A stretch of 37,804 nt of DNA from IMG/VR virus record IMGVR_UViG_2565956716_000007; one strand, written 5' to 3'. Of this stretch, positions 1,184-37,287 are shown in pieces (the first letter of the stretch is position 1; every line of letters starts with the position of its first letter). The notes beneath the pieces are model-generated. The model was not told the DNA's origin. It did not search any database and was given only the letters and a program-made list of their open reading frames with translations. Both the position numbers and the translations under genes were made by a program. The DNA is from a virus (lineage: Duplodnaviria; Heunggongvirae; Uroviricota; Caudoviricetes).

Positions 1184-1666
1184 ATGGAAGAACTTCACTT
1201 TGTTTACATCAATGCAAATGGTCGTATCGGTGTTCACTCTATACAGAGCATCAGTTATAGCGAAAATCATATACAGGGCATTTGTAAGAACACCGATCGA
1301 ATAAAAACCTTCCGAAAAGACCGCATTCTTAAACAGTACGATTCACCAGAACAAGCCATTCAGGAGTGCGCGTCATTCCTCCCCGAAAACTACTCACATC
1401 TCACCAAGCAGTCTGGTCCGAAAAAAAATACATTCGATGTGTGTTTCACCGGATTTAAGAAAGCAGATAAAGAAAGATTGGTTGATAAGGCGAATGAACA
1501 AGGATTAACGGTAAGAACCTCTGTAACCCAAAGCCTTCAGATGCTCTGTTGCGGTTACAATGCAGGCCCATCAAAAGTATCGGCAGCCAGGATGAAAGGC
1601 ACAATCATCATAGATGAGCCTGGCTTTATACATTTTCTTGAAACGGGTGAGATCCCAGATGAATAA
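1184..1666 (+). CDS. hypothetical protein with C-terminal BRCT-like domain (prophage cargo between att and ogr)
   Basis: 160-aa ORF with AGAGG RBS about 8 nt upstream; C-terminal ~75 aa (FDVCFTGF...GLTV...GPSKVSAARMKGTIIIDEPGFIHFL) follows the BRCT pattern seen in the LigA C-terminus; lower G+C than flanks by eye. Confidence 0.6.
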   Translation: MEELHFVYINANGRIGVHSIQSISYSENHIQGICKNTDRIKTFRKDRILKQYDSPEQAIQECASFLPENYSHLTKQSGPKKNTFDVCFTGFKKADKERLVDKANEQGLTVRTSVTQSLQMLCCGYNAGPSKVSAARMKGTIIIDEPGFIHFLETGEIPDE

Positions 1667-20638: not shown

Positions 20639-22405
20639 ATGAACACCACACTGACACCCGCAGATCTCGATCCCCGTAGGCAGGCCATGCTGCTGTACTT
20701 TCAGGGATACCGCGTAGCCCGCATTGCTGAAATGCTGGGCGAGAAAGTTGCAACCGTTCACAGCTGGAAAAAACGCGACAAGTGGGGTGACTATGGGCCG
20801 CTGGATCAGATGCAGCTCACCACCGCCGCACGCTACTGCCAGCTCATCATGAAGGAGCACAAAGAAGGGAAAGATTTCAAAGAGATTGACCTGCTGGCGC
20901 GCCAGTCGGAACGCCACGCGCGGATCGGCAAGTTTAACAATGGCGGCAACGAAGCCGACTTAAACCCTAACGTCGCCAACCGTAACAAAGGCCCGCGCCG
21001 TCAGCCGGAAAAGAATGTTTTCACCGATGAGCAGATTGAGAAGCTGGAAGAAATCTTCCATTCCTCCATGTTCAACTACCAGCACCACTGGTGGGAAGCT
21101 GGAAAAACCAACCGCATCCGCAACCTGCTGAAGTCACGCCAGATCGGCGCGACTTTTTACTTTGCCCGTGAAGCCCTGATTGACGCCCTACTGACAGGAC
21201 GCAACCAGATTTTCCTTTCTGCCAGTAAGGCACAGGCTCACGTCTTTAAGCAGTACATCATCGACTTCGCCAAAGAAGTCGAGGTGGAGCTGAAAGGCGA
21301 TCCGATGGTGCTTCCTAACGGGGCCACGCTTTACTTCCTCGGCACCAATGCCCGCACGGCCCAGAGTTACCACGGCAACCTGTATCTGGATGAATATTTC
21401 TGGATACCGAAATTCCAGGAGCTGCGCAAAGTGGCTTCCGGTATGGCTATTCACAAAAAATGGCGACAAACCTATTTTTCCACGCCATCCAGCCTGACAC
21501 ACAGTGCTTATCCGTTCTGGTCCGGTGCGCTGTTTAACCGTGGGCGCAACAAAGCCGATAAGGTGGACATCGACCTGTCCCACAACAATCTGGCCCCCGG
21601 CCTACTGTGCGCAGACGGGCAATACCGCCAGATAGTCACCGTGGAAGATGCGGTGCGCGGCGGCTGTAACCTGTTCGACCTCGACCAGCTACGCATGGAG
21701 TACAGCCCGGACGAATATCAGAACCTGCTCATGTGCGAGTTCGTGGACGATCTCGCGTCCGTGTTCCCGCTCAGCGAACTGCAGGCGTGCATGGTGGACA
21801 GTTGGGAAGTCTGGACCGACTTTCATGCACTGGCCCTGCGCCCGTTTGGCTGGCGCGAGGTGTGGATCGGTTATGACCCGGCAAAAGGTACGCAGAATGG
21901 CGACAGCGCCGGATGCGTGGTGGTGGCACCGCCAGCCGTGCCAGGCGGTAAGTTTCGCATTCTTGAGCGTCACCAGTGGCGCGGGATGGACTTCCGCGCC
22001 CAGGCTGATGCAATCAAAAAACTGACCGAGCAGTACAACGTGACCTATATCGGCATCGACTCGACAGGCGTCGGTCACGGGGTTTATGAGAACGTGAAAG
22101 CGTTCTTTCCTGCCGTCCGGGAGTTTGTCTACAACCCCAACGTTAAAAACGCCCTGGTACTCAAGGCCTACGACATTATCAGCCACCGCCGTCTGGAGTT
22201 TGACGCCGGGCACACCGACATTGCGCAGTCATTCATGGCAATCCGTCGCGCCACCACCGCCAGCGGCAACCGCCCGACCTATGAAGCTAGCCGCAGCGAA
22301 GAAGCCAGCCACGCCGATCTGGCCTGGGCAACAATGCACGCACTGTTTAACGAACCGCTGCAGGGCGAGTCCGCCAATACCAGCAATATTGTGGAGATTT
22401 TTTGA
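20639..22405 (+). CDS. P: terminase large (ATPase) subunit gpP
   Basis: 588-aa ORF, P2 P-like size, divergent from O; recognised as the large terminase by size and position, nuclease-domain motifs not verified. Confidence 0.9.
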   Translation: MNTTLTPADLDPRRQAMLLYFQGYRVARIAEMLGEKVATVHSWKKRDKWGDYGPLDQMQLTTAARYCQLIMKEHKEGKDFKEIDLLARQSERHARIGKFNNGGNEADLNPNVANRNKGPRRQPEKNVFTDEQIEKLEEIFHSSMFNYQHHWWEAGKTNRIRNLLKSRQIGATFYFAREALIDALLTGRNQIFLSASKAQAHVFKQYIIDFAKEVEVELKGDPMVLPNGATLYFLGTNARTAQSYHGNLYLDEYFWIPKFQELRKVASGMAIHKKWRQTYFSTPSSLTHSAYPFWSGALFNRGRNKADKVDIDLSHNNLAPGLLCADGQYRQIVTVEDAVRGGCNLFDLDQLRMEYSPDEYQNLLMCEFVDDLASVFPLSELQACMVDSWEVWTDFHALALRPFGWREVWIGYDPAKGTQNGDSAGCVVVAPPAVPGGKFRILERHQWRGMDFRAQADAIKKLTEQYNVTYIGIDSTGVGHGVYENVKAFFPAVREFVYNPNVKNALVLKAYDIISHRRLEFDAGHTDIAQSFMAIRRATTASGNRPTYEASRSEEASHADLAWATMHALFNEPLQGESANTSNIVEIF

Positions 22406-23445
22406 TGGGAAAGAGTAAGAAAAACCGCGCTGCGGCGACGAAACGGAGCCAGCATAAAAATCAAACTTCAGCCGAAGCTTTCAGCTTTGGTGATCCCATT
22501 CCTGTACTGGACCGCCGCGAACTGCTGGACTATGTGGAATGCGTACAGACGGATCGCTGGTATGAGCCACCCGTAAGTTTTGACGGACTGGCGCGCACCT
22601 TCCGGGCTGCCGTGCATCACAGTTCCCCGATTGCAGTAAAGTGCAACATTCTGACCAGTACCTATATCCCTCATCCGCTGCTCAGCCAACAGGCTTTTTC
22701 GCGTTTTGTGCAGGACTATCTGGTATTTGGTAACGCCTACCTGGAGAAACGCACGAACCGATTCGGTGAAGTTATCGCCCTTGAGCCTGCGCTGGCAAAA
22801 TACACCCGACGAGGGTTAGACCTGGAGACCTACTGGTTTGTGCAATACGGCATGACTACGCAGCCGTATCAGTTCACGAAAGGCAGCATTTTTCATCTGA
22901 TGGAACCGGACATCAACCAGGAGATCTACGGCCTGCCCGGTTATCTTTCTGCCATTCCGTCAGCCCTGCTCAACGAGTCCGCCACGCTGTTCCGCCGTAA
23001 GTATTACATCAACGGCAGCCATGCAGGCTTCATCATGTACATGACCGATGCCGCGCAGAACCAGGAGGATGTGAACAACCTCCGCAATGCGATGAAAAGC
23101 GCCAAAGGCCCTGGCAACTTCCGCAACCTGTTTATGTACTCGCCTAACGGCAAAAAGGACGGGCTTCAGATTATTCCTCTGTCAGAAGTCGCGGCAAAGG
23201 ATGAATTTTTGAATATCAAGAACGTGAGCCGGGATGACATGATGGCAGCGCATCGTGTTCCGCCACAGATGATGGGGATTATGCCGAATAATGTCGGGGG
23301 GTTTGGGGATGTGGAGAAGGCCAGCCGCGTTTTTGTTCGAAATGAACTGATCCCCCTACAGAAGCGTTTTGAGGAACTGAATAGCTGGGCCAATGAACAA
23401 GTAATTCGTTTTGATTCTTATGCATTTGAACCCAACATAACTTAA
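22402..23445 (+). CDS. Q: portal protein gpQ
   Basis: 347-aa ORF coupled to P by 4-nt overlap; P2 Q-like size. Confidence 0.9.
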   Translation: MMGKSKKNRAAATKRSQHKNQTSAEAFSFGDPIPVLDRRELLDYVECVQTDRWYEPPVSFDGLARTFRAAVHHSSPIAVKCNILTSTYIPHPLLSQQAFSRFVQDYLVFGNAYLEKRTNRFGEVIALEPALAKYTRRGLDLETYWFVQYGMTTQPYQFTKGSIFHLMEPDINQEIYGLPGYLSAIPSALLNESATLFRRKYYINGSHAGFIMYMTDAAQNQEDVNNLRNAMKSAKGPGNFRNLFMYSPNGKKDGLQIIPLSEVAAKDEFLNIKNVSRDDMMAAHRVPPQMMGIMPNNVGGFGDVEKASRVFVRNELIPLQKRFEELNSWANEQVIRFDSYAFEPNIT

Positions 23446-23466
23446 TGATTTTTTTGAACAAACAAA

Positions 23467-23489
23467 ACCCGCGTTGGCGAATCGCGGGT
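23467..23489 (-). terminator. hairpin terminator between Q and the 413-aa cargo gene
   Basis: ACCCGCG-ttggcgaa-TCGCGGGT with a T-rich run on the minus-strand side. Confidence 0.4.
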
Positions 23490-23496
23490 CATTTGT

Positions 23497-24738
23497 CTAT
23501 AAATCTTCTTGTGTAGGAAGTGTCGAGATATCACCTCCATAATTTATTTCAATCTCTGGAAATCGTTCTCGCCACTGTTCAAAAGTTTTTGGAATAGTTT
23601 TTTTCCATTTATGTACATTTGTGAAATAACGAATTTCACCATCATTGAGATAAATAGCCCATATCTCGCCATCTCTACCAAACATCACCATACCTTCCGC
23701 AATGGTATAAAGTCCTCTAACTCCTCCCTGATAAGCCTTTGCGACAAAAGTATCAAGATTATCGTGCTCACCTATTTGCTCCATCACTTTTTTCAGTTCA
23801 AAGTAATATTGCCCCATAACGTTGTATAATCTCTGAAGTTCCATTTCATTTGCAAAACCAAATAAAAACAAATGATCCTCTGCACAACGAAACTCACCAT
23901 CAAAAAAGGCCCCCATACCTCGCCAGTATTGACAACTAACGGTCTCACTTATCCTAATATATCGTTTACCATCAAATATGCTGCGCCTAAAACTCAACTC
24001 GCCAAATTCATTACTTCCAGGTATTTTTATTCTAGCGTAAGCTGAATCTCTAGCTACAAAAACCGCCTCTCCTGTAATACTCCCAGAATGTGATCCATTC
24101 ATAACTACTAAATCAAAAAGAAAACCATTTGACGATGTTTCACGAATAAATAATTTGCCAAAATTACTTCTGCGATTGTCCTTGTACCACTCCCCCCACC
24201 ATATTGGTGCATTTAAACCTGAAGAAATAGCTCCTTGGCTTGAATCACTCAAGGACTCCCTTAATGCAGTTTCAAGTCGCCCTTGCAGTAAGCTTCTTAC
24301 CTCAGGTTTTGAATCACTATCAGGGTCCATAGTATATGCAATTACCCTCCGTCCTCTTAAGTCAAAAGGAAGTTCTTCTGGAGAACCATAAAATGTATTC
24401 TGGACCATGATTACTCTATCCCAGCCTAGCTGGGATACTGCATATCCTAATTCAATCAAAACATTTGGATTAGGTGTCTTCTTATCCTCAGACCTTCCAT
24501 TTATGATAGAAACATCGGCAACAAAAACATCTGAAAGTGATATTTTATTAAAAATGCTTTCGCTAATTGATGGTGAGCCATTTAAACCATTAGTATCACG
24601 ATCCAAGACTGGCTCCAATGTTTCTGTTTCATCCTTTTTTATTGCTTTTAGAGATCTAACCAAAGCATCTTGAATTAAATTTCTATTACATTTTCCATTT
24701 AAATCAGATTGCCAAGAGTAAAAAACTATTCTTTGCAT
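23497..24738 (-). CDS. hypothetical protein, N-terminal TIR-like domain with uncharacterised C-terminal domain (candidate defence cargo)
   Basis: 413-aa ORF with GAGGAG RBS 8 nt upstream; N-terminus RIVFYSWQSD...DVFVADVS...NPNVLIELGYA...LPFDLRGRRVIAY fits the TIR-like pattern; AT-rich relative to flanking genes. Confidence 0.7.
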   Translation of the reverse strand: MQRIVFYSWQSDLNGKCNRNLIQDALVRSLKAIKKDETETLEPVLDRDTNGLNGSPSISESIFNKISLSDVFVADVSIINGRSEDKKTPNPNVLIELGYAVSQLGWDRVIMVQNTFYGSPEELPFDLRGRRVIAYTMDPDSDSKPEVRSLLQGRLETALRESLSDSSQGAISSGLNAPIWWGEWYKDNRRSNFGKLFIRETSSNGFLFDLVVMNGSHSGSITGEAVFVARDSAYARIKIPGSNEFGELSFRRSIFDGKRYIRISETVSCQYWRGMGAFFDGEFRCAEDHLFLFGFANEMELQRLYNVMGQYYFELKKVMEQIGEHDNLDTFVAKAYQGGVRGLYTIAEGMVMFGRDGEIWAIYLNDGEIRYFTNVHKWKKTIPKTFEQWRERFPEIEINYGGDISTLPTQEDL

Positions 24739-24820
24739 TTGCCATTCTCCTCATCCTTTTATTGCCAGATTATCTAAAAACATAGTCGAAGTGAATTCTT
24801 ATCGAACCGTATTGCGCGCA

Positions 24821-24839
24821 CTCGTATCCCCGCCACGCC
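24821..24839 (-). other. putative cos (cohesive end) site
   Basis: Minus-strand GGCGTGGCGGGGATACGAG shares its first 13 nt with the P2/186 cohesive-end sequence as I recall it; position between Q and the early region fits. Confidence 0.3.
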
Positions 24840-24888
24840 TGCCCGCTTTATGTAGTGGTTTTCATGCACCTGCATGATCTACGCAAAA

Positions 24889-24909
24889 GCCCGCCAGTTC
24901 TGGCGGGCC
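24889..24909 (-). terminator. hairpin downstream of the DinI-like gene
   Basis: GCCCGCCAG-ttc-CTGGCGGGC perfect 9-bp stem. Confidence 0.35.
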
Positions 24910-25043
24910 TTAGCAAAAACGATCCTCAAACGATCATGCGATCTCATGCGGCATAGACATGCACTACAGAGCTAACGCCTCGCAAGGGCTCGTTGTTCAA
25001 CCTTGCTGACGCCAGAAGCAAGTTCAGACGCCAGCAACGTTTC

Positions 25044-30845: not shown

Positions 30846-31478
30846 ATGATACAAGTAAAAGCTGGCGAGAATACAGGGGGAAGAGAGGCTATCCATAGGC
30901 TAATGGCAGCCTATGATTTCAAGTCCAGACAGCAACTTTGCGATCACTTGGGCGCATCAAAAAGCACTATGGCAAACAGATACTTAAGAGATAGTTTTCC
31001 TGCAGAATGGGTGATTCAGTGCGCTTTGGAAACAGGAGTTTCTTTACTGTGGCTAACTACCGGACAGGGCGATCCAGGTTCAAACATTGACCCTAAAAAA
31101 AATATCAATTCCGTGAACTCTAGCAAAGTTAAACCTCTTTCGGAGCTTGTATCTCCTGAAATTGACAAGGCAACTCTCAACGGAGGTTTGCTGATCGATG
31201 CTGGAAAAGCAATCATTGATAGCAGCATACTCCCCTCAGACTCAAGCAACCTGCTGCTGGTGACTACTTCTGGTGATTCTTATTTAATAGATCGCAACCA
31301 AACACCACCAGTAAATGGTACGTGGTTAGTGGACATCGACGGGATAAAAAGCATTGTAAAATTGACACGACTCCCGGGAAACAGATTAGTAGTGCATCAG
31401 GATGATTCATCGTTTGAGTGCGAACTGGATGACATTGAGGTAATAGGCCGCGCACTGAAAATCATTAAGAGCCTTTGA
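30846..31478 (+). CDS. cI: CI-like immunity repressor
   Basis: 210-aa ORF divergent from apl and followed by int (186 layout); true start may be an internal Met. Confidence 0.7.
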   Translation: MIQVKAGENTGGREAIHRLMAAYDFKSRQQLCDHLGASKSTMANRYLRDSFPAEWVIQCALETGVSLLWLTTGQGDPGSNIDPKKNINSVNSSKVKPLSELVSPEIDKATLNGGLLIDAGKAIIDSSILPSDSSNLLLVTTSGDSYLIDRNQTPPVNGTWLVDIDGIKSIVKLTRLPGNRLVVHQDDSSFECELDDIEVIGRALKIIKSL

Positions 31479-31479
31479 T

Positions 31480-32493
31480 ATGACCATCAGAAAACAGCCG
31501 AACGGAAAGTGGTTATGTGAATGCTACCCAAACGGGCGAGATGGCAAACGCGTACGCAAACAATTTGCGACGAAAGGCGAAGCCATTGCGTTTGAGAATT
31601 TCACCATGGACGAGGTAAACAAGAAACCTTGGCTGGGAGAAAAGGAAGATCGGCGACACCTATCAGAATTAATTGAGCTGTGGTATTCCCTGTATGGTCA
31701 AACACTCGCAGACCCCAAGCGACTCATGGCGAAACTTGGAATTATCTGTAATGGTCTGGGCGATCCCATCGCTTCAGAGCTGACTGCCGGTGACTTTACG
31801 AAATACCGCGAAGCACGGCTAAAAGGTGAAGTGCGAAATGAAGATGGCACGCTGATGTCGCCCGTTAAGCCCCGCACGGTAAACCTTGAACAGCGCAATC
31901 TATCATCTGTGTTCGGTACATTAAAAAAACTAGGACACTGGTCAGCACCAAACCCGCTGGCAGGACTTCCGACCTTCAAAATTGCCGAAGGTGAGCTGGC
32001 TTTTCTTTCCACGGACGAAATCAAGCGCCTGTTGGCGGCATGTGCTGAATCTCAAAGCCCTAGCTTACTAATGATTGCAAAAATATGCCTGGCTACTGGC
32101 GCACGGTGGAGTGAAGCCGAAAATCTGCAGGGCCATCAAATATCGAAATACCGAATTACTTATACAAAAACAAAAGGCAAGAAAAACCGTACTGTGCCGA
32201 TATCTCAGGATCTGTATGATGAACTCCCCAAAAACAGAGGAAAGTTATTCACGCCATGCAGAAAAGCCTTTGAGCGGGCAGTAAAGCGGGCCGGTATTGA
32301 CCTACCGGAGGGCCAATGCACCCACGTGCTTCGCCATACATTCGCCAGTCACTTTATGATGAACGGCGGAAACATACTGGTACTGCGTGATATTTTGGGT
32401 CATGCCGATATAAAAATGACCATGATTTACGCCCACTTTTCGCCCGATCACCTTGAAGACGCGGTGACTAAAAATCCTCTTTATAATTTGTAG
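31480..32493 (+). CDS. int: tyrosine integrase (P2/186 Int family)
   Basis: 337-aa ORF with C-terminal catalytic region HVLRHTFASHF...LGHADIKMTMIYAH. Confidence 0.9.
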   Translation: MTIRKQPNGKWLCECYPNGRDGKRVRKQFATKGEAIAFENFTMDEVNKKPWLGEKEDRRHLSELIELWYSLYGQTLADPKRLMAKLGIICNGLGDPIASELTAGDFTKYREARLKGEVRNEDGTLMSPVKPRTVNLEQRNLSSVFGTLKKLGHWSAPNPLAGLPTFKIAEGELAFLSTDEIKRLLAACAESQSPSLLMIAKICLATGARWSEAENLQGHQISKYRITYTKTKGKKNRTVPISQDLYDELPKNRGKLFTPCRKAFERAVKRAGIDLPEGQCTHVLRHTFASHFMMNGGNILVLRDILGHADIKMTMIYAHFSPDHLEDAVTKNPLYNL

Positions 32494-32505: not shown

Positions 32506-34026
32506 GTGATTCAAAAATTAGATATTCAATCTGATGCGGTTGCAAAGTTAAGAATGGATGCTATTCGTTCAGAAATCCAAGGTTATTCCCCTGATTTATT
32601 TATCGAATTCTGTATGCAATATAACTTACAAAAATTTGAAGATAATATCCACATGTTACGACACATGCCTTGGATTGTTAATTTATGTCTAAAGTGGTCT
32701 GCGTCAGTAACTGGCAAGAATAAAAAATTCAAAATCCTCGATAAAAATCAAGCAATAAAACTCTTCCAAAAAACTTATGAAACCTTGAACATTATTCCTA
32801 TCGGTCTTGAGAGGAAGAATGGCATGCATTTCTTCATTAGAAATAATCTATACCAACAAGGAATCTACCAGAAAATTGACGCTCTAAACACAATTAGCAG
32901 ACAAGTCTTTCTATTTTCAGAACTTGAAAAAAACCATAAAATAAAGACAAGTTTTTTTACTATCACGAATGTATCTATCGAAGACTTTCTTAAGCTATCT
33001 TACATATTAATAACTCACATAACAGAAGAGCATCCCGTGAGAAAAATGAATGTAGATACATTTACTATATTATTTGACATCATTCCTAGAAATACCATTG
33101 AGAAATTTCTTGATGCAATATCAATAAATTACAATGAACTATCTACATTTTGCAAATCAAAAACCTATGATAAACCTTTGCTTGAATACTACTCATCATC
33201 ACCTTTCCTTGAAAAACCATTAATAAAAAAAGGTTCAGAGTATTTTCAGATACACACACAACTGACTTCAACAAGCATACAGACGTTCATATATGATCTT
33301 TTAAGAAGAACTGATGCCGAGAAGTTCATGGATAGCTTTGGAAATGTATTTGAAAATGCACTGGAATTAATACTAAAAGAAAGCGAAATTGATTTTCATA
33401 ACGAAAAATACCTTAAAGAACGACTACCTAAAGATAATAAAGTAGTTGATTATTTCATTCCACATACTGAGGCAAATATTTTCATTGATGCTAAAGGCGT
33501 TGAGATACACCAAAAAGGCATGGTAACATTACGCCCTGAGGATATTGCAGGAAAAATAAAGAAATCGGTATTAAAAGCAATCGAACAATCTCACGAAGTT
33601 AATCGAGAAATATACTCTAATGAGCGAATAATAGCTCCATTCAGGGCTAACTCATATATCATTTGCATTACATATAAAAACCTTTTCTTAGGCAATGGTA
33701 GTATCCTAGCTAATACTTATGCTAAAGATGAGATGAATAAGATATATGACAAGTTTAAACATAACTATCATATCCCTACAGAGAATATTTTTTGTCTATC
33801 ATTTGAAGAGTTTGAATATCTCATTGCATCATGCAAAAGGTTTAAAATTCCGCCTCATGAAGTCTTGCAATCTGCAGTTGAAAAGAACAAAAAACCATCA
33901 AGTGCTGCTTTCCTATTTTCCCACCATATAGAAGACTATTTTGATAGAGTAGTCAATTCAGTCATAGTCAATGAGGCAGGCATTAAAATGGTAGATTCTA
34001 TTATCAATAAATTAAAGCCTGAATAA
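32506..34026 (+). CDS. hypothetical protein with PD-(D/E)xK-like nuclease motif (AT-rich cargo between int and att)
   Basis: 506-aa ORF with GTG start and GGAG 7 nt upstream; strongly AT-rich; FENALELIL...VVDYFIP...IFIDAKG resembles E / D / D-x-K nuclease motifs. Confidence 0.7.
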   Translation: MIQKLDIQSDAVAKLRMDAIRSEIQGYSPDLFIEFCMQYNLQKFEDNIHMLRHMPWIVNLCLKWSASVTGKNKKFKILDKNQAIKLFQKTYETLNIIPIGLERKNGMHFFIRNNLYQQGIYQKIDALNTISRQVFLFSELEKNHKIKTSFFTITNVSIEDFLKLSYILITHITEEHPVRKMNVDTFTILFDIIPRNTIEKFLDAISINYNELSTFCKSKTYDKPLLEYYSSSPFLEKPLIKKGSEYFQIHTQLTSTSIQTFIYDLLRRTDAEKFMDSFGNVFENALELILKESEIDFHNEKYLKERLPKDNKVVDYFIPHTEANIFIDAKGVEIHQKGMVTLRPEDIAGKIKKSVLKAIEQSHEVNREIYSNERIIAPFRANSYIICITYKNLFLGNGSILANTYAKDEMNKIYDKFKHNYHIPTENIFCLSFEEFEYLIASCKRFKIPPHEVLQSAVEKNKKPSSAAFLFSHHIEDYFDRVVNSVIVNEAGIKMVDSIINKLKPE

Positions 34027-34363: not shown

Positions 34364-37027
34364 TCAGAACGACCAGTTCACACCAGCTACCCCGTTCCAC
34401 GGGGATTCCACACCGGCACCATGGCTATACCCCACCCCAAGATGCCCGCTTAACGTACTGCTGAATGAGGCTTTAATACCTGCCTGGTATATTCCACGTC
34501 TGCCCGACAAATCATTGACGAAATTACCGTCACTATTCACTTTCACCCGGTTATCATCGACAAATTCTTTGCGCACAGCCGCCTTCAGCCACGGCTCAAC
34601 TTCCATACCGTTCCCCAGACGCATGTTGTAACTCAGCGTTGCACCCAGTTCACGATATAAACTGCGGGTATCGACTGATTTCGATTCCATGCCATTGGAT
34701 AAATGATATTCAGGGTTATCAGCGGTGAACCCCCGTTAACGATGCATACGGCGTCAGGTTCCAGTTACCATCGGTAAATCGCATCCCGGTTTCAATGTGA
34801 CCGCCCAGCCCGTTGCTGCGATAACTGCCGTTGGCGGCTCCACCGCTGCCAACCGTGGAGTCGCGAGCTTCGGTACCTGCTAATACCAATAAATTACCGC
34901 CATTTTCCAGCAACATATTGGTCGCTAAATTGCCGGAAATGGAAAAAGTGCCGTACTGGTGAGTACCGCTGATTTCAATACCGTTACCATAATTCTGAAC
35001 GGTTTGCGTGCCACCATTGATGTGTGTTTTCTCTGTTGACCCACCATCAACAATTTGTTCACCACTTTCGATATTTGCCTCAGTGGCTAATCCATATACC
35101 GTTTGCTTGCCACCTTTGATATTTGCTTTATCAGAAGTGGCACTGGCATATATTGTTTGGGTGCCAGCACTATTGAGTACAGTGCCAACATCTTTTCCAT
35201 AAACATCCATTTTGCCGTTGGCATTAATAATCGTATCAACTGCCCGGGAACCAGTGACGACTGTTAATGAGCCAGCGTTTTCCAGCACTACATTTTTAGC
35301 TTCTGAATTCCTGATGTAGAAAGCATCACCATAACTGTTGGTTCCTTCGATAAGGGTTCCGGAAGTTGTGGAAGCAATTAATGCGCCGCCGGATTGTTGC
35401 TCAACATGCTTAGCCTCACCACCGTCCTGAACCTCCAGAACGCCACCATTATTAAGTCTGGTGGTATCTGTTTTAGCCTCCTTCTGGACAATCAGCTTAC
35501 CGCCAGCATCAACGGTAGTATTTTTCGCCGAGGTTTTAGCCACTACCGTCAGTTCGCCGGTATTTTCCAGCACAACATAATTAGCCTCCCCTCCGGTAAT
35601 AGTGAAGTGAGAGAGCTTGTTGTATCCTTCAATATCAGTCCCTGCGCCCGTGTTGGCAACTAAAGCACTGCCCGTCTCCTGGTTAACCCCATGTGCAATA
35701 CCACCGGTATAGACAATCAGCGAGCCTCCGGCGCTAATATTGCTGCCAGTTGCCGTACCATCTTTCTCAACAACCTGCCGGCTCCCGGAGGATATAATTG
35801 TCGTGTCAGCTTTCCCGCCGCTCTTGATATTTTGCGTTCCGCCGTTGATATTGGTACCCGTGGCAATACCATGATTATTAATATTCTGTGTACCACCATT
35901 GATTATGGTATTGGTCGCGTTTCCGGTAACATCCATTACCCCGCCGTTATCTATTCGGGTCGCATCAGCTTTAGCATTCGTTAAAACTGACATTGTTCCT
36001 TTATCTTTAATAATCGTCTTGTTTGCCGAACCATATGCGTTTATGTCTAAATGACCACCGTTTTCCAGCAACACATTGTCTGCCACGTGATTGTGGATGG
36101 AGAATGCACCTTCACTATTCGTACCGCTCACCGTCGTACCGTTAGTGTTTGTTTTTAAAATTGCACCATCGTGCTGGGTAACATTTGTTGCCGTACCACC
36201 ACTAACATCAAGCACGCCACCGGAATAAACTTCAATAACATCCGAGGAGCTGGTGTAATCAACAATTTGCGTACCACCAGAATAGATCTGAGTATTTTTG
36301 CCGTTGACTTATTATTCAGAGACTGAGTTCCACCTTCAATCGTCGTGTCCAGCGCATGGCTTTCATATACTCTTTGCTCACCGCCATTTTTAATGGTGGT
36401 TGTTCCTACTGTGCTCTGTTCAACATACTGTCGTCCACCATTTATGATTGTGTTCGTTGCAATACTTCCTTGCGTGATGTCCTGATAACCGGACTTATTT
36501 ATCGTTGTACCATCAACATGCCCCTGAGTTGTTACTTTCTGCCCTCCACCATCAATGATGGTTCCATTCGCAGTCCCCCCACTTATGTGTGAATTACCAC
36601 CCTTAATTGTCGTTCCATTGCTGATACCACCTGTATAAACGTCCTGATTGCCACTGTCGATTATCGTACCGGTGGAAATGCCCCCGTCATGAATTGTCTG
36701 TCTTCCTCCGTTAATGGTTGTATTATTAGCCTGCCCCACAAAATTGTTATGACTTCCTACATCTTGATATCCACCCGATTCAATAAGACTTCCATTAGAT
36801 ACCCCGCCATGAACATTCTGCTGGCCATGGTTGATAATATGAGTGTTATTTGTTGTACCTCGTTCATCTACTCTTTGGCTGCCATCTACAGTCTCATCGT
36901 TTACCACACCAATAACATCAGGAGTGAAGGCCGTCATCCCAGGCGGGGCATATATCAAGGCAGATATCAATAAGGAAAGTACTGAGCGGCGACAATAATG
37001 GGGACTGGTCCTGTTCATAAATTTCAT
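34364..37027 (-). pseudogene. autotransporter adhesin, frameshifted
   Basis: Three consecutive same-strand ORFs in different frames: extended signal peptide and passenger repeats (36155..37027), passenger repeats (34719..36215), beta-barrel C-terminus ending NWSF (34364..34690). Confidence 0.7.
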
Positions 37028-37287
37028 CCTCTGAAAAGTGAATACTGAGTAGCGTTTAAGCGACCTTAGCTCTGCTGCAACATCAGCCCACAGGCACCAG
37101 ACCAGGGGATTCATCCTGAAGAGACAGCGCAAGTGTATTGTGTTCACCGCTCATCAAAGACATCATGATGAAATGATGATATTCCACATAAGAAAGAAGC
37201 ATTTTTTAAACGCAGTGCGCTGAAGTATGGTTGGATAAAAAAGTCAATCTATTCAGGGAATACGGGGGTATTCTTTTCTTTCGACAA

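Follow-up and report, generated by a model that had tools for sequence, protein, structure and literature searches.

The stretch of viral DNA analyzed here, IMG/VR record IMGVR_UViG_2565956716_000007 (37,804 nucleotides, hereafter the window), holds a 186/P2-like prophage that abuts the tmRNA gene ssrA (698-1060), with a repressor of the CI type and an integrase gene at 30846-32493. Between its portal gene Q and its cohesive-end site (cos) lies a gene for a 413-residue protein that joins an N-terminal TIR domain to a C-terminal module belonging to a large protein family. By analogy with characterized systems, we propose with moderate confidence that this gene is carried by the prophage as a moron and would encode a single-polypeptide abortive-infection NAD+ glycohydrolase (NADase) with a C-terminal sensor.

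The cargo between gene Q and cos

Terminase gene P (20639-22405) and portal gene Q (22402-23445) both lie on the plus strand and read towards cos. Homology to other P2-like prophages and phages ends at the Q stop codon and restarts at about 24798-24812, and the block in between (Table 1) contains the 413-residue, minus-strand open reading frame (ORF) on which the original prediction was built, which is present as the sole long ORF of the interval. The same prediction described the insert as AT-richer than its surroundings and P2 as nearly free of spacer at this place, and the figures bear out both statements. The GC content is 0.369 for the TIR gene and 0.370 for the cargo block, compared to 0.51-0.57 for the backbone genes (Q, 0.513; P, 0.565; A, 0.533), and the distance from the Q stop to cos is 1375 bp in the window versus 167 bp in P2.

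Locating cos was itself a matter of homology, because a search of the window with the P2 cos sequence gave no exact or 3-mismatch match; the site was therefore placed by alignment to the ends of P2 and by the record ends of related phages, some of which map to about 24824-24840. The segment so identified agrees with the annotated cohesive end of P2 in 14 of 19 positions, and the sequence to either side is homologous as well. From this position of cos and the point at which backbone homology restarts, it follows that the cargo is placed between the portal gene and cos. P2 carries old and tin on the opposite side of cos from the portal.

The genes flanking the TIR ORF are the portal gene and a DinI-like gene, and the ORF has signals of its own. 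The predicted GAGGAG ribosome-binding site is found upstream of the start codon, and the predicted hairpin terminator is endorsed by a terminator scan and by folding energy alike, with the hairpin at 23467-23489 and its T-run just past the stop codon flagged by the scan and the fold reaching -18.3 kcal/mol (z = -3.46). A GC-rich minus-strand hairpin (GCCCGCCAG...CTGGCGGGC) followed by TTTTG also occurs downstream of the DinI-like gene, at 24886-24912, narrowly below the threshold of the terminator scan. It is probably the terminator of the DinI-like gene, in which case the TIR gene would need its own promoter in or beside the cos region.

More than 4500 database proteins match the ORF, a full length of ~411 to 413 residues is kept down to 47% identity, and nonsynonymous divergence (dN) is far below synonymous divergence (dS), which is saturated. 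For these reasons, the ORF is not a chance feature, and the gene, judged by its substitution pattern, is under strong purifying selection.

Table 1. Features of the cargo block and the adjoining cos region, in window positions (aa, residues of the 413-residue protein)
Feature	Position	Strand	Details
Cargo block	23446..24811		1366 bp, GC 0.37, between Q stop codon and conserved cos-proximal backbone
Intrinsic terminator	23456..23489	-	Stem 23467-23473 / 23483-23489, then TTTGTTTGTTC; common to the convergent Q gene
Coding sequence, 413 aa	23497..24738	-	Identical to RefSeq WP_023277642.1, "TIR domain-containing protein"
C-terminal subdomain 2	23539..23874	-	aa 289-400; two helices, four-stranded meander, helix; motifs GGVRGLYT, RYFTN, LPKT..W..RF
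C-terminal subdomain 1	23884..24201	-	aa 180-285; eight-stranded up-and-down calycin-like beta-barrel, opens W-W-G-x-W
CAP12/Pycsar-type TIR domain	24238..24738	-	aa 1-167, including linker helix 144-167
Glu96 codon	24451..24453	-	Putative catalytic residue; motif N90-P-N92-V-L-I-E96-L-G-Y-A
Ribosome-binding site GAGGAG	24747..24752	-	8 nt before ATG, read from sequence
cos core	24821..24839		Reverse complement GGCGTGGCGGGGATACGAG; equivalent of 19-nt cohesive end; P2 cosL/cosR alignment

The gpA-gpQ interval of P2 is a documented defence hotspot (PMC9122126, PMC9519451). The gene lies within this hotspot, as the original prediction had placed it, and the Q-cos slot of related prophages is filled by other cargos: a Hypoth_Ymh protein, two hypothetical proteins, or two hypothetical proteins together with one of the DUF4062 family. 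The DUF4062 occupant is found in a sister prophage (L003, 1677-2711) and the Hypoth_Ymh occupant in phage vB_EcoM-813R9 (L013, 3272-4423). In E. coli D7 (L002, 4224-4943) and in strain 23CRST010, a gene for a 239-residue HNH endonuclease separates the TIR gene from the DinI-like gene.

The N-terminal TIR domain and its relatives

Residues 1 to 167 are a CAP12/Pycsar-type TIR domain (PF10137, STIR clan), so that the TIR-like N terminus proposed earlier can now be assigned to a family. The whole protein scores 26.6 bits against PF10137 (E = 6.6e-6; gathering cut-off, 24.7) and residues 1 to 170 alone score 28.9 bits, and the family is matched by all 19 homologues scanned, with a best E value of 8.1e-9. 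PADLOC CBASS "Effector TIR" models match residues 78 to 151 (E = 1.8e-9). An AlphaFold2 model computed from 51 homologues, with a mean predicted local distance difference test (pLDDT) of 84.5, has an N-terminal alpha/beta fold with a beta-alpha-beta core, and its top 10 Foldseek matches in the PDB, without exception SfSTING/TIR-STING chains (E = 9.2e-5 to 1.4e-3, probability 1.00), represent the nearest solved folds. PDB sequence profile searches with the full-length and N-terminal alignments returned chance matches only.

In SfSTING, the NAD+ pocket uses F6, R78, and N80, and the catalytic residue E84 lies on helix alphaC (PMC9402430). Across the 51 homologues of the window protein, F6, N92, and E96 are invariant, and they are the counterparts of SfSTING F6, N80, and E84. 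The spacing of N92 and E96 is that of SfSTING N80 and E84 (N-x-x-x-E), and E96 falls within a predicted helix of the AlphaFold2 model (residues 91 to 104), likewise alphaC. It is this combination of invariance, spacing, and helical position that makes Glu96, already singled out in the original prediction, the right catalytic candidate. The NCBIfam Cap12 model, in which residues 73 to 155 align to model positions 63 to 141, is consistent with this placement, and we regard Glu96 as the putative catalytic glutamate, matched to E84 by motif and by hidden Markov model (HMM) coordinates. Two peculiarities set the domain apart: Asn90 stands at the position of SfSTING Arg78, and a long loop of low model confidence (residues 46 to 56), with an invariant D46-R-D-T...G54-x-P56, occurs where TIR domains have the regulatory BB loop.

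The asparagine at position 90 is one of several features that would also suit a defence effector in which the TIR-like domain acts as an N-glycosidase on nucleotides or nucleosides, similar to nucleoside 2-deoxyribosyltransferase (NDT) or MilB, and would drain nucleotides or modified-base precursors instead of NAD+. The NDT family PF05014 is matched weakly but recurrently, by 15 of the 19 homologues (best E = 1.4e-3), and the authors of the SfSTING study liken this class of TIR to the hydroxymethyl-CMP (hmCMP) glycosylhydrolase MilB (PMC9402430). However, every PF05014 match is below its gathering cut-off, whereas PF10137 is above, and the best structural matches are to TIR-STING, an NADase. 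All characterized PF10137 effectors known to us cleave NAD+, which also counts against a glycosidase, and we consider this activity an unlikely alternative.

Among defence proteins, the CBASS effector Cap12/TIR-STING (SfSTING) and the Pycsar effector PycTIR share the PF10137 subtype with the window protein; they offer the nearest solved structures and have the N-x-x-x-E motif on alphaC. They also have the same order of parts, an N-terminal TIR followed by a C-terminal domain, which in those systems binds a ligand and drives filament formation and NADase activation. The window protein differs from both in that neither the window nor the homologue contexts hold a CD-NTase or a pyrimidine cyclase and in that its C terminus is not STING, SAVED, or cNMP-binding. 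Membership in CBASS was accordingly rejected, with the NCBIfam Cap12 model giving 14.8 bits against a cut-off of 450. Pycsar PycTIR was rejected as well, as the PADLOC match (E = 0.0045) covers the TIR core and nothing else, no neighbouring gene encodes a cyclase, and Pfam gives no cNMP_binding match. Thoeris ThsB fits no better: the protein has no PF08937 match, and it is a single-gene cargo with no ThsA-like neighbour.

A closer likeness in layout is to the DUF4062 proteins, which 2026 preprints describe as the single-gene NADase defences Swarozyc and Evangelion, with Swarozyc being switched on by a phage portal. Like these, the window protein is encoded by a single gene on a mobile genetic element and has an N-terminal TIR-like domain with a glutamate near position 96 to 97 followed by a C-terminal auxiliary (AUX) region. 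In Swarozyc and Evangelion, the AUX region is needed for sensing and abortive infection proceeds via loss of NAD+, and the slot between Q and cos is filled by a DUF4062 protein in other P2-like prophages of E. coli. Kinship with DUF4062 was nevertheless rejected, as there is no DUF4062 Pfam match at E <= 1 and a comparison with the DUF4062 protein of the slot gives E = 0.39 in BLASTP and a probability of 0.15% in hhalign; the C-terminal regions are unrelated. It is by analogy, then, that the window protein would work most like the single-gene systems composed of a TIR-like effector plus an auxiliary domain.

Validated TIR defences are also found in the cos-proximal hotspots of P4 and P2, among them Rst_TIR-NLR and the "2TM+1TM+TIR" system of the P2-like phage AC1 (Rousset et al. 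2022). The AC1 TIR resembles the window protein in matching PF10137 (HHpred). Rst_TIR-NLR has a STAND NTPase and a TPR sensor, and the AC1 system comprises three genes with a short TIR-only protein; the window protein has neither arrangement. Systems of the SEFIR and DSR2 types reportedly combine an NADase effector and a sensor in one polypeptide and act by abortive infection. They differ from the window protein in their effector families, SEFIR and SIR2, and in their sensors.

The C-terminal module

The C-terminal part of the protein was originally described as aromatic-rich and without a recognized family, and it is both, with aromatic residues making up 16.0% of the C-terminal 243 residues versus 6.5% of the N-terminal 170 and no Pfam match. 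Residues 172 to 413 are modelled with very high confidence as a barrel and an alpha/beta subdomain (pLDDT, 93.7; predicted template modelling score [pTM], 0.88). For the same residues, searches found no Pfam match, no PDB sequence relative, and no Foldseek PDB relative at E <= 1e-3. The barrels of Cap15, avidins, lipocalins, and Gid4 align over ~90 residues at 5 to 15% identity, which amounts to generic barrel likeness, and subdomain 2 has no counterpart in them.

A profile of the module run against 1.84 billion representative proteins recovered 755 clusters, 156 of them at E <= 1e-30, and most are not TIR proteins. Subdomain 2 always accompanies subdomain 1 across this family. By a strict heuristic, at least 65 of the 150 top family members have a signal-peptide-like N terminus, and the partners to which the module is fused include SLH, choline-binding repeats, Big_5, LprI, TPR, and ankyrin repeats. 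In one cluster (P0193), the module is fused to a different TIR family, TIR_2. Among the secreted proteins and lipoproteins of the family (P0141, P0148, P0164, P0169, P0170, P0179, P0188, and others), many have an extra N-terminal domain of ~110 residues with the motif GTYxY...L.G, and one protein of the family has two tandem copies of the barrel.

In 114 non-TIR members, the conserved positions are mainly glycines and aromatic residues together with two cysteines (246/269) of the kind usual in secreted forms; the window protein has glycine at 246, so the pair is half lost. A catalytic role for the module was judged unlikely given that the conserved positions are mostly of these kinds, and the pattern of conservation suggests that the module is a scaffold for binding and not an enzyme. 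What such a scaffold would bind is a separate matter. One idea is that the module is a ligand receptor borrowed from the secreted and surface family and that the cytoplasmic TIR fusions sense a small molecule or envelope fragment, such as a breakdown product of the cell wall or its precursors. We think this improbable, but, if true, it would make the protein a cyclase-independent TIR receptor that senses damage or metabolites and would provide a function for an unnamed family of ~755 clusters.

Modularity, genomic contexts, and proposed function

The TIR subtype is modular in turn. A scan of IMG/VR for its motifs (FYSWQSD...DRDT...NPNV..ELGYA..LGW...LPFD) found 27 loci on viral contigs, of which 4 share the full-length architecture and 23 join the TIR to other C termini, so that in all at least 9 mutually unrelated C-terminal classes are represented. 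Ten proteins from these loci had no PADLOC system match beyond the TIR core. A tblastn search with the TIR subtype alone found it on 73 plasmids, 56 of them typed as conjugative. On E. coli IncF plasmids, the subtype forms the C terminus of a 275-residue protein (L051, 3153-3980, plasmid pETEC_35), and on a Ruegeria plasmid, a 421-residue TIR-subtype protein is encoded directly downstream of an AbiEi/AbiEii toxin-antitoxin pair, overlapping its end (L052, 3501-4766). A tblastn search of 50,697 phage records gave no match, and the family is therefore absent from deposited phage genomes.

Both halves of the protein are thus exchanged as modules. A conserved effector with interchangeable C termini is the usual signature of a defence protein, and the layout originally envisaged, effector plus sensor in a single polypeptide, fits both the swapped C termini and the lack of a conserved partner. 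In 10 homologue contexts, no cyclase or conserved partner is present, with the exception of a membrane protein in P4-like satellites. Homologues adjoin the portal gene in a Pantoea P2-like prophage and occupy the Psu/Delta-integrase hotspot of P4-like satellites in Klebsiella and Pectobacterium. Others are located beside an AAA_15/21-DUF3696 cassette in Nitrosospira, a transmembrane (TM) protein and ThsB-TIR pair in Aeromonas, a STAND-like NTPase within a mobile element in Paraburkholderia, and a large deaminase with insertion sequence (IS) elements in Cyanobium.

The satellite protein is a multi-pass membrane protein of 234 residues, always encoded 28 to 33 bp upstream of the TIR-barrel homologue (L011, 6268-6972; L021, 6263-6967). 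It is 77% identical between Klebsiella and Pectobacterium, has no Pfam family, is absent from the E. coli P2 version, and may be an accessory membrane effector. The 239-residue HNH gene seen in E. coli was considered as its equivalent and rejected (BLASTP E = 7.9), one being an HNH protein and the other a multi-pass membrane protein.

These neighbourhoods bear on whether the TIR might signal instead of kill, in the manner of Thoeris, by making a messenger derived from ADP-ribose upon sensing a phage and thereby activating a separately encoded effector. The satellite membrane protein, in an arrangement resembling AC1 "2TM + 1TM + TIR", and the Aeromonas copy next to a TM-protein and ThsB-TIR pair would both suit such a scheme. 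Against it, the P2 cargo of E. coli consists of one gene, no partner is conserved across the 10 contexts, PF10137 TIRs are NAD+-depleting effectors in CBASS and Pycsar, and no ThsB_TIR match was found; a signalling role is therefore, in our estimate, very unlikely.

A role outside immunity also has to be weighed. The gene could be an addiction or competition toxin of the prophage or other mobile element, a TIR virulence factor directed at the host, or a modulator of lysis-lysogeny in the phage itself or of packaging near cos. It lies just 83 bp from cos, the TIR subtype is frequent among conjugative plasmids and adjoins toxin-antitoxin modules, and the P2 hotspot is known to hold partition systems and the cdt toxin as well (Rousset et al. 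2022). However, the cargo in the window is one gene with no antitoxin-like partner gene, related prophages function with quite different cargos in the slot, and no signal peptide or secretion signal is present in the 413-residue sequence. The wide spread of the family among free-living bacteria of the environment, Nitrosospira, Methylobacter, and Cyanobium among them, further argues against virulence, and, taken together, we regard a non-immune function as unlikely.

In the abortive-infection model that we favor, the protein would be cytoplasmic, with the TIR domain as effector, a presumed NAD+ glycohydrolase using Glu96, and the barrel-plus-alpha/beta module as sensor. At rest, the TIR domains would be held apart or auto-inhibited. 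Upon infection by another phage, the sensor would bind a trigger, for which a phage protein is a likelier candidate than a small molecule, and the protein would assemble as an oligomer or filament. Contacts between TIR domains would then complete the Glu96 active site, and NAD+ would be depleted so that the infected cell stops supporting phage growth. This activation logic is modelled on TIR-STING and on the unrelated DUF4062 NADase Swarozyc; NADase activity, activation by oligomerization, the nature of the trigger, and a defence phenotype are all features that the protein may be expected to have under it.

Several observations weigh against this model. The CAP12-type TIRs characterized to date are switched on by a dedicated nucleotide signal, and no such signal is encoded in the window. 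No PADLOC model spans the full-length protein, and the family of the C-terminal module consists mostly of secreted or cell-surface proteins or lipoproteins, for which the sensing of an intracellular phage cue is not an obvious task. The contexts of the Shewanella and Rhodopseudomonas homologues are not clearly defence related. Within E. coli, the gene is rare, present in only 3 of 5426 complete genomes, 1275 of which have the flanks in common, and the 73-bp upstream stretch specific to the cargo has no convincing sigma-70 promoter, with only weak -35/-10 pairs discernible by eye. Finally, neither the protein nor its DNA sequence is in Table S2 of Rousset et al. (2022), which lists the cloned systems, so that it has been catalogued and not validated.

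The rarity in E. coli and the apparent want of a promoter could also mean that the gene at present serves no function in that host and is a passenger, either inert or in decay. This seems the least probable of the explanations considered, and a very unlikely one, as the ORF is intact and identical or nearly so in independent genomes, the catalytic and structural motifs are invariant, the ribosome-binding site and terminator are intact, and dN is far below dS.

Elsewhere in the window, a 506-residue ORF at 32506-34026 (plus strand; GC, 0.30-0.33), directly downstream of the integrase gene, forms a second AT-rich single-gene cargo of the prophage; it has no Pfam match and no PADLOC match, and the integrase-att slot in which it lies is a minor P2 defence hotspot according to a 2026 preprint. 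Just past ssrA, a 160-residue ORF (1184-1666, plus strand) has a weak PADLOC match to the C-terminal end of PDC-S48 (E = 1.8e-7). Past the end of the prophage, two adjacent or overlapping minus-strand ORFs with AIDA autotransporter-adhesin repeats (34719-37147) may be one gene broken by a frameshift.

The original prediction had called the protein undescribed, and this does not hold: the identical protein WP_023277642 is annotated in RefSeq and catalogued in Table S5 of Rousset et al. 2022 (PMC9122126), where hotspot system no. 148, "TIR-like", has 13 occurrences and its locus is listed as "hypothetical + DinI + TIR-like". A 2025 systematic survey of TIR proteins left out standalone TIR proteins on purpose, and a literature search by accession, YSWQSD motif, PF10137, and the combination of TIR with barrel or lipocalin found no characterization. 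A specialist would expect a gene of this sort in the slot. New in this analysis are the character and extent of the C-terminal module family, the modular use of this TIR subtype, and the placement of the cargo on the Q side of cos.

If validated, the protein would represent a family of single-gene defences whose TIR is of the CAP12/Pycsar type, known until now as an effector activated by second messengers, and works without a cyclase. The TIR subtype would then be a portable effector that phages, satellites, and plasmids carry in combination with many different sensors, and a large domain family with neither a Pfam entry nor a solved structure would gain an initial lead to its function. For the prophages themselves, it would mean that the 186-like lineage has hotspot cargo on the portal side of cos, mirroring old and tin of P2.

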